This document shows positions 8,943 to 9,292 of a stretch of DNA of 64,000 bases, piece by piece. A program made the position numbers and the translations under genes. Under the pieces are notes generated by a model, which did not search any database, was not told the origin of the DNA, and saw only the letters and a list, made by a program, of their open reading frames with translations. The first letter of the stretch is position 1. Each line of letters begins with the position of its first letter. The DNA is from Escherichia coli (GTDB taxonomy: Bacteria > Pseudomonadota > Gammaproteobacteria > Enterobacterales > Enterobacteriaceae): NCBI RefSeq assembly GCF_003334815.1, contig NZ_QOWO01000002.1; one strand, 5' to 3'.

Positions 8943-9292
8943 TAACTCCTTTCGAGCACGCAGTCGCTGGTGCAGTGGCTGCGCGCTGCAAAATTATCTG
9001 CTGTTTTTAACCTTTTCTTAAAGATTATTTCACTTCTCTTGTGTCGATTTGGCTTTATCACATAGAGCAAATATGCATAAAAATTTGTTAAATACCGTTT
9101 TTTAATCCGAGCTATAGTCTCAAACCCTGGCTAAAGTTATTCTTGCGATGCTTTTATATAGCGAGCAGTGCTGGCCGGGAGAAAGTTCTCTTTTCTTACA
9201 CCGCGCCGATAAAAAATATGCACGTTTATTGCATATCTTTCAGTGTGACAACTTTTGTTCGTTTGTTAACGAACTTTCAGAAGGAAAGAGAT

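Follow-up and report, generated by a model that had tools for sequence, protein, structure and literature searches.

The potFGHI operon of Escherichia coli is nitrogen-regulated, and the question raised by its upstream region is whether a sigma-54 (RpoN) element that lacks one of the most conserved bases of such promoters can be the operon's genuine promoter, or whether it is a strain variant, a decoy or a chance resemblance. This question was addressed on a stretch of 64,000 nt of an E. coli genome (contig NZ_QOWO01000002.1 of assembly GCF_003334815.1; hereafter the window), in which the ybjN-potF spacer (8943–9292) carries a -24/-12 element that reads TG instead of GG at -24. In our assessment this element is quite probably a natural, weak sigma-54 promoter of potFGHI, with near-optimal bases at its other positions and driven by NtrC.

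The 17-mer ATGCACGTTTATTGCAT is located on the + strand at 9218–9234, i.e., 58 nt before the potF start codon (the ATG being at 9293 rather than 9294), in agreement with the original prediction of a near-consensus sigma-54 element with a disrupted GG roughly 60 bp upstream of potF. In the frame that Bonocora et al. use for the 17-mer, this same element is offset by 1 nt, and its parts, together with the downstream gene, are as follows:

9217–9233, + strand: sigma-54 -24/-12 element of potFGHI, TATGCACGTTTATTGCA
9218–9219, + strand: the two bases that depart from TGGCACG-N4-TTGCW, with A9218 standing for the consensus T and T9219 for the first G of the -24 GG
9231–9232, + strand: GC dinucleotide of the -12 region, correctly spaced from G9220 (from sequence and matrix)
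9293–10405, + strand: potF coding sequence, putrescine-binding periplasmic protein

The -24 doublet consists of T9219 and G9220, and the GG expected of a sigma-54 promoter is therefore absent. The GG-N10-GC spacing is canonical from G9220 to G9231, and the remaining consensus positions (GCAYG ... TTGCW) are matched according to a partial position-specific scoring matrix (PSSM) of 15 columns.

It had also been suggested that the TG doublet might depart from the reference sequence as a variant, but this was not borne out. The window is K-12 DNA, and its entire ybjN-potF spacer is 100% identical to that of K-12 derivatives and of MG1655 (NC_000913.3, with the motif at 893708–893724). Moreover, a 36-nt query that was built in such a way that any change in its central 20 nt blocks a match was found in 5340 of 5426 complete E. 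coli genomes (i.e., the 20-nt core is exact in at least 5340 of them), and the T-to-G version of this query had no match in any of the 5426. TG in place of GG is the normal sequence of the species and not a mutation.

Taken alone, the sequence match is at chance level. A log-odds matrix was trained on 133 of the 135 motifs that were identified by chromatin immunoprecipitation and sequencing (ChIP-seq) in Bonocora et al. (2015), with potF and its near-twin ygfT left out, and this full matrix assigned 5.9 bits to the potF motif (compared to a minimum of 7.2 and a median of 14.5 bits for the training sites). A score of 6 bits or more is reached by about 139 17-mers in the window, and sequences within two mismatches of the consensus occur 10 times in the window vs. 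15.5 times expected. It is the published occupancy and transcriptional start site (TSS) data, together with the conservation across species, that raise the element above chance.

With regard to occupancy, sigma-54 ChIP-seq site OS08 (peak at 892944, motif centre at 892939, FAT value of 2, score of 6.8 on the authors' own PSSM; Bonocora et al. 2015) is this same 17-mer, and was marked "P" (i.e., predicted in EcoCyc) by these authors. Window positions 9217–9233 correspond to 892931–892947 of U00096.2, so that their centre (892939; window 9225) coincides with that of OS08, whose peak is 5 bp away from it. All 13 validated sites in the same study lost their signal upon deletion of rpoN, an earlier ChIP-chip study reported a sigma-54-bound region (892604–893381) that covers the element, and RegulonDB includes potF among its sigma-54 promoters. 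For Salmonella, potF primers for ChIP followed by quantitative PCR are listed, and 14 of the 14 sites tested in that organism were reported to be bound.

With regard to transcription, three starts have been mapped for potFGHI-ybjO (Table S6 of Cho et al. 2014), i.e., 892573, 892864 (18 reads) and 892959 (7 reads), the last of which corresponds to the following feature:

9245, + strand: mapped TSS (U00096.2 892959, 7 reads; Cho et al. 2014, Table S6), 13 nt past C9232

According to the convention of Bonocora et al., the motif predicts a start at 892958 (window 9244), which is 1 nt from the mapped position (a chance of about 0.02, given two TSSs in the 350-bp spacer). The "found motif" column of Cho et al. 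was too permissive and was not counted as evidence. Upon nitrogen depletion, potG mRNA increased 6.0-fold and potI mRNA 3.2-fold, which was credited to RpoN and NtrC by Shimada et al. (2021), who cite Zimmer et al. (2000) for control by NtrC. Together, OS08, the RegulonDB entry, the start at 892959 and this mRNA induction support the earlier proposal of a weak, non-canonical sigma-54 promoter for this nitrogen-regulated operon. A sigma-70-type start unrelated to the motif, which the original prediction had named as an observation that would count against it, does exist at 892864, but another start lies at the sigma-54 position.

A high matrix score does not guarantee occupancy in vivo, nor does a low one exclude it, since two matches in the window that are stronger than that of potF, namely ATGGCGCGAATTCTGCA (16.5 bits; 46323–46339, - strand, inside cydD) and CTGGCGCATATGATGCA (14.7 bits; 21700–21716, - strand), are absent from the 135 high-stringency sites and from the available part of the supplementary text of Bonocora et al. 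An intragenic match in serS (55376–55392) is the known site IS10.

In order to follow the element across species, 80 potF loci from different Enterobacterales species were compared. The pattern ATGCA-N7-TGCA was present 57–107 nt before potF in 52 of these 80 species, and the carriers comprise all Enterobacteriaceae proper except Salmonella diarizonae and Yokenella. T replaced the first G in each of the 50 distinct orthologous promoter regions (from the 52 species), and a scan favouring GG revealed none at the position of the element. The columns outside the anchors were conserved as well (Y6 in 50/50, G7 in 46/50, T10 in 47/50, T12 in 47/50 and T17 in 50/50), with largely diverged flanks. The scores in Table S5 of Bonocora et al. 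follow the same pattern, being 8.1 for Citrobacter, 8.0 for Enterobacter, 8.0 for Klebsiella, 6.7 for Cedecea, 7.6 for Raoultella and 7.4 for Cronobacter, and low for Salmonella (2.6) and Yokenella (-1.1). The Yokenella sequence reads ATGCA-N5-TGCAT, with a spacer that is 2 bp shorter and incompatible with sigma-54, and the NtrC site discussed below is lost there too; that of Salmonella diarizonae reads ATGCA-N7-GGCAT.

Four lineages, i.e., Kluyvera (loci L016 and L042), a gut Enterobacteriaceae isolate (L019) and Pseudocitrobacter (L025), also carry a canonical sigma-54 promoter, TTGGCGAG-N4-TTGCA (15.8–16.8 bits), upstream of the GG-less element (at approximately 81 nt in three of them and 206 nt in L016). 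This extra promoter is located at about 2344–2360 in L042, 140–141 nt before potF in L019 and L025, and 265 nt before potF in L016, and occupies the place of a conserved sigma-70-type block of E. coli that is described below. In three of the four lineages the GG-less element reads CTGCA, not TTGCA. These canonical promoters show that regulation of potF by sigma-54 is a trait of the family, in which the promoters themselves have undergone some turnover.

Compensation at the other positions of the element was assessed by dropping the two deviant columns and scoring the remaining 15 columns on the sigma-54 matrix. On this partial PSSM, the E. coli potF element obtained 15.8 bits vs. a median of 11.6 for true sites, and the orthologues reached a median of 17.0 bits, which exceeds 98.5% of the true in vivo sites and is attained by only 0.27% of random ATGCA-N7-TGCA fillings. 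The seven spacer columns contributed +4.8 bits in the orthologues, +2.6 in true sites and -2.9 in random sequences. Given these partial-PSSM and spacer-column scores, the non-palindromic positions follow the preferences of sigma-54. Restoring TGG in the E. coli motif would raise its full-matrix score to 19.5 bits (with 20.5 bits being the maximum of the matrix). In the first-G column of the 135 ChIP-seq sites, G is found 130 times, A three times and T twice, the two T sites being potF and ygfT. The sequence is a sigma-54 element in which a conserved defect in the -24 GG goes together with a remainder that surpasses almost all others.

An NtrC site is usually positioned 100–150 bp upstream of the sigma-54 promoter that it serves. 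Such an upstream site is missing at potF, as no NtrC site with five or fewer mismatches was found in the ybjN-potF spacer; an NtrC site overlapping the motif itself was considered and rejected, since its TGCA-N7-TGCA falls short of the NtrC dyad by 2 bp and shows six mismatches. A good site was found downstream instead, within the operon:

10453–10469, no strand assigned: NtrC (GlnG) site CGCACCATTATGGTGCG in the potF-potG spacer, differing from TGCACCAnnnTGGTGCA only in the two outermost bases

This 17-bp dyad (TGCACCA-N3-TGGTGCA) is one of only two sites of that quality in the 64 kb, and lies 1,220 bp downstream of the promoter and approximately 30 nt before the potG GTG (at 10500). Both a peak for NtrC in genomic systematic evolution of ligands by exponential enrichment (gSELEX; 95%, reported at 894130) and a gel shift with purified NtrC coincide with it (Shimada et al. 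2021). A sigma-54 promoter for potG was also sought in the potF-potG spacer, but no sigma-54-like motif of at least 5 bits was present (the best one having 4.8 bits, on the wrong strand), and the NtrC site is therefore left without a local promoter to serve.

When presence of the NtrC site was defined as a match with three or fewer mismatches in the potF-potG spacer, 45 of the 80 species had both the element and the site, in seven the element was accompanied by a weaker site or by no site at all (still recognisable at four mismatches in four of these seven), none had the site without the element, and 28 had neither. Fisher's test yields p = 2e-15 for this co-occurrence, a value that treats 80 related species without correction for phylogeny, so that the informative events are a gain at the level of the clade and two double losses inside it (Salmonella diarizonae and Yokenella). 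The identity of GCACC...GGTGC, and not merely its complementarity, is kept across genera, with two species showing the perfect consensus, which favours a protein-binding site over a simple RNA hairpin. We infer that the site at 10453–10469 is an enhancer of the potF promoter (potFp), acting by looping from 1.2 kb downstream.

Two other inverted repeats were noticed in this spacer. Species without the NtrC site have another palindrome in its place before potG (e.g., TGTGCGACAACCGGGCCGCACA or TGTATGGCACCGGTCCATACA; at about 3670–3700), which is found in loci L025, L038 and L010, where no good NtrC site is present, and in L036, which keeps only an NtrC-like site with four mismatches; this palindrome may be an intercistronic RNA hairpin. 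In E. coli, the stretch from the potF stop codon to the NtrC site holds a GC-rich inverted repeat (TGCCGG...CCGGCA, 10420–10447) that includes one more CGCACCA half-site. This repeat might stabilise or attenuate the transcript between the two cistrons, or serve NtrC as an auxiliary half-site.

In the mechanism that we propose, sigma-54 holoenzyme would form a low-occupancy closed complex on 9217–9233, its binding being weak because -24 reads TG instead of GG. During nitrogen limitation, phosphorylated NtrC bound at 10453–10469 would loop back over approximately 1.2 kb and drive open-complex formation, with transcription starting from about 9245. When nitrogen is plentiful, expression would be supplied by an upstream promoter:

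9138–9150, + strand: sigma-70-type promoter P1, with a -10-like TATTCT at 9138–9143 (by sequence reading) and a TSS at 9150 (892864, 18 reads; Cho et al.)

The start of P1 is located 95 nt upstream of that at 892959, and its transcripts cross the sigma-54 site at 9217–9233. It forms the end of a conserved block (9093–9150; CGTTTTTTAATC..GCTATAG.CTCAAACCCTGGCTA.AGTTATTCTTGCGA) that is kept in Klebsiella, Enterobacter and Salmonella, and that probably holds the housekeeping promoter together with regulator sites (Lrp, ArgR). This block survives even in Salmonella lacking the sigma-54 element and the NtrC site. At the motif itself, a scan of the + strand with the sigma-70 consensus found no promoter; TATCTT (9234–9239) is a possible -10 hexamer there, but has no -35.

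The position of P1 also offers a reason for the conserved defect. Sigma-54 closed complexes are stable and silent, and it has been argued that they can repress transcription by sigma-70 (Shimada et al.). If the site had the consensus GG, a closed complex both silent and very stable would then sit 95 nt downstream of the sigma-70 start and block its transcripts. We infer that selection maintains the T, since the housekeeping promoter would be obstructed in this manner by a consensus site. A second constraint, imposed by a protein that recognises the dyad around the element, is possible as an alternative or additional reason.

A number of observations weigh against a weak, NtrC-driven sigma-54 promoter at this position. 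The motif scores under every training site and lacks the GG present in almost all sigma-54 promoters, and its invariant A1, T2 and T17, as well as its symmetric flanks, are not accounted for by sigma-54 preferences. ChIP occupancy is near the threshold (FAT of 2), the TSS has just 7 reads, and sigma-70 and sigma-38 bind the same region, so that another holoenzyme may be responsible for the start at 892959. No direct test of potF transcription from 892959 in rpoN or glnG mutants was found in the literature, the mRNAs measured by Shimada et al. (2021) were those of potG and potI and not that of potF, and these authors link the NtrC site with a "potG promoter", not with potFp. Furthermore, the strongest RpoN gSELEX peak of Shimada et al. 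was reported at 892632 (window position of about 8918, at the 3' end of ybjN), approximately 300 bp upstream of the motif, compared to distances within about 70 bp between the gSELEX peaks and ChIP-seq sites of glnH, rutA, kch, pspA and ddpX. The best sigma-54-like 17-mer near that peak is CTGGTGCAGTGGCTGCG (8967–8983, 7.0 bits). The ybjN-potF spacer was also picked up as a minor peak in an unrelated gSELEX screen with ZraR, and as a hotspot of binding and cleavage by topoisomerase I (TopoI). The RpoN gSELEX peak, although listed at 100%, was discounted as support on account of its distance from the motif and these other signals; the in vitro signal at this spacer may be non-specific, the DNA simply being sticky.

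The best-surviving alternative starts from the symmetry of the element, which is enclosed by an inverted repeat:

9212–9240, no strand assigned: inverted repeat AAAAATATGCA-N7-TGCATATCTTT enclosing the promoter element (E. coli sequence)

Across species, the core of this dyad is ATGCA-N7-TGCAT, and its family form is (A)T-ATGCA-N7-TGCAT-A(T). The conserved dyad could mainly or additionally be the operator of a dimeric transcription factor overlapping the promoter, whose requirement for ATGCA, and not selection for weak sigma-54 binding, would fix the A and the T at positions for which sigma-54 prefers T and G; we regard this as unlikely, though deserving of serious consideration. In its favour, the sigma-54 matrix predicts neither the invariant A1, T2 and T17 nor the mostly symmetric pairs T0/A18 and A-1/T19. 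Symmetry is seen at the outer five positions and in the flanks, but columns 6 (Y) and 12 (T) are non-complementary in every sequence and match sigma-54 preferences, like the inner spacer columns. Moreover, TGCA is self-complementary, so that any GCA...TGCA sigma-54 element yields much of the dyad automatically, and the ygfT site, nearly identical to that of potF, is bound in sigma-54 ChIP even though its ATGCC disrupts the dyad.

Two candidate proteins were considered for such an operator, i.e., ArgR, via an ARG-box-like site over the left half, and an NsrR-type regulator, the consensus of which we take to be AAnATGCATTT-n-AAATGCATnTT. For ArgR, a scan with the ARG-box consensus peaks at offset -11 across species (mean of 11.7/16, about 5 standard deviations over other offsets), EcoCyc lists ArgR, ArcA and Lrp sites at potF, ArgR-dependent occupancy exists in vivo, and comparative genomics counts potFGHI among the taxon-specific members of the ArgR regulon. 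However, the E. coli match at that offset is poor (10/16), and instead of an ArgR operator, in which two 18-bp boxes (WNTGAATWWWWATTCANW) are spaced by 21 bp from centre to centre, only a single box-like match without a partner at this canonical spacing was found; the best ARG-like boxes of E. coli are elsewhere (9062–9090), close to the conserved block at 9093–9150. An ArgR box over the -24 element was accordingly retained as a low-confidence candidate only. For NsrR, a literature search yielded no paper tying it to potF regulation.

It is improbable that the site is a mere decoy, to which sigma-54 holoenzyme binds weakly without ever firing, with induction stemming from NtrC acting on a potGHI promoter, from Nac, or from sigma-70 or sigma-38, and with 892959 being a sigma-70 or sigma-38 start. 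Such a scenario would fit the caution of Bonocora et al. that binding does not prove promoter function and that most sigma-54 holoenzyme was inactive under their conditions, as well as the binding of sigma-70 and sigma-38 to the region (Cho et al.), the attribution of the NtrC effect to potG on the basis of potG and potI mRNA only (Shimada et al.), and the reading of TATCTT at 9234–9239 as a -10 hexamer for the start at 9245. It is contradicted by the potF-potG spacer, which holds no sigma-54 motif even though the NtrC site lies only about 30 nt from the potG start, and by the lack of a usable -35 for a sigma-70 promoter at 9245. In addition, a non-functional site would be expected neither to keep its super-consensus remainder across about 50 species nor to appear and disappear in step with the NtrC site. 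Finally, a functionless chance resemblance to the consensus, as could be read from the chance-level frequency of two-mismatch matches and the approximately 139 equal or better PSSM matches in the window, is highly improbable in view of the ChIP-seq and ChIP-chip occupancy, the TSS at the predicted position, the family-wide conservation amid diverged flanks and the co-occurrence with the NtrC site.

As a weak sigma-54 promoter, potFp can be compared with the canonical NtrC-dependent promoters (glnAp2, glnK, nac, glnH and astC). It has in common with them the -24/-12 arrangement with GG-N10-GC spacing, the -12 TTGCA, a start approximately 12 nt after the GC, a function in nitrogen scavenging and the type of NtrC site (TGCACCA-N3-TGGTGCA). 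Its family consensus, GCATGATTCTTGCA, is essentially an ideal sigma-54 sequence (cf. pspG, TTGGCATGATTCTTGTA). In contrast to these promoters, potFp has T for the first G (which is missing in only 5 of the 135 in vivo sites) and A for the preceding T, its FAT value is 2 vs. 18–24 for glnK, glnA and nac, and its only good NtrC site is located 1.2 kb downstream inside the operon. The capacity of NtrC enhancers to act remotely by looping, as the potF arrangement requires, was described for glnA sites that had been moved far away (Reitzer and Magasanik 1986, as reported in a citing paper); that case concerns an engineered relocation, whereas potF presents a natural candidate site 1.2 kb downstream within a transcribed operon.

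The closest relative of the potF element in E. coli is found outside the window:

3030978–3030994 of NC_000913.3 (1479–1495 of locus L082), - strand: ygfT site OS32

OS32 (TATGCCCGTTTATTGCA), upstream of ygfT, shares 19 of 20 positions with the potF element (aTATGCnCGTTTATTGCAT), with unrelated flanks. Like potF, it has the TATGC variant of the -24 region, a CGTTTA spacer, weak occupancy (FAT of 3) and a downstream gene for nitrogen scavenging (urate/purine). Unlike potF, it carries an A-to-C change that breaks the left half of the dyad, a lower PSSM score and poor conservation across genera (Table S5 of Bonocora et al.). We tentatively raise the possibility, itself rather doubtful, that potFp belongs to a GG-less group of sigma-54 promoters that is small and conserved (TATGCnCGTTTATTGCA; in E. 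coli, potF and ygfT), in which a super-consensus remainder would offset the defective -24 element, with closed-complex occupancy staying low. At potF, selection would preserve this state because a stable silent sigma-54 complex would act as a roadblock to transcripts from the sigma-70 promoter 95 nt upstream, and activation would come from a natural intra-operon NtrC enhancer 1.2 kb downstream.

Downstream of the promoter, the potF transcript contains a further conserved structure in its 5' untranslated region (5'UTR):

9257–9274, + strand: 5'UTR stem-loop, with a GTTCG/CGAAC stem (longer by two pairs in E. coli) and loop TTTGTTAA, directly ahead of the Shine-Dalgarno sequence

In the comparison across species, 94% of cells were paired for this stem and 15 cells showed compensatory double changes, which is better than all slid controls. 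Compensation in other genera produces the variants GTCCG/CGGAC and GCCCG/CGGGC, with the loop highly conserved. No Rfam family was found for the potF 5'UTR or for the spacer. The conserved TGTTAA in the 5'UTR could alternatively be part of the ArcA site annotated in EcoCyc.

The sigma-54 promoter of potF is already known, being present in EcoCyc and RegulonDB, and its exact motif has published ChIP-seq support, so that reporting the promoter itself adds nothing to the current annotation. The additions made in this analysis are modest and consist of its identity to the reference, its conservation, the compensation at its other positions and its co-occurrence with the NtrC site. They nevertheless make potFp a natural test case for the tuning of sigma-54 promoter strength, in which a near-invariant base has been replaced by T and the remainder has moved towards the optimum, and for selection against silent closed complexes downstream of other promoters. 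The co-evolution of the NtrC site with the promoter suggests that the published assignment to a "potG promoter" be revisited, and an NtrC site that co-evolves with its promoter from 1.2 kb downstream would be an instance of natural remote enhancer action within an operon in E. coli.

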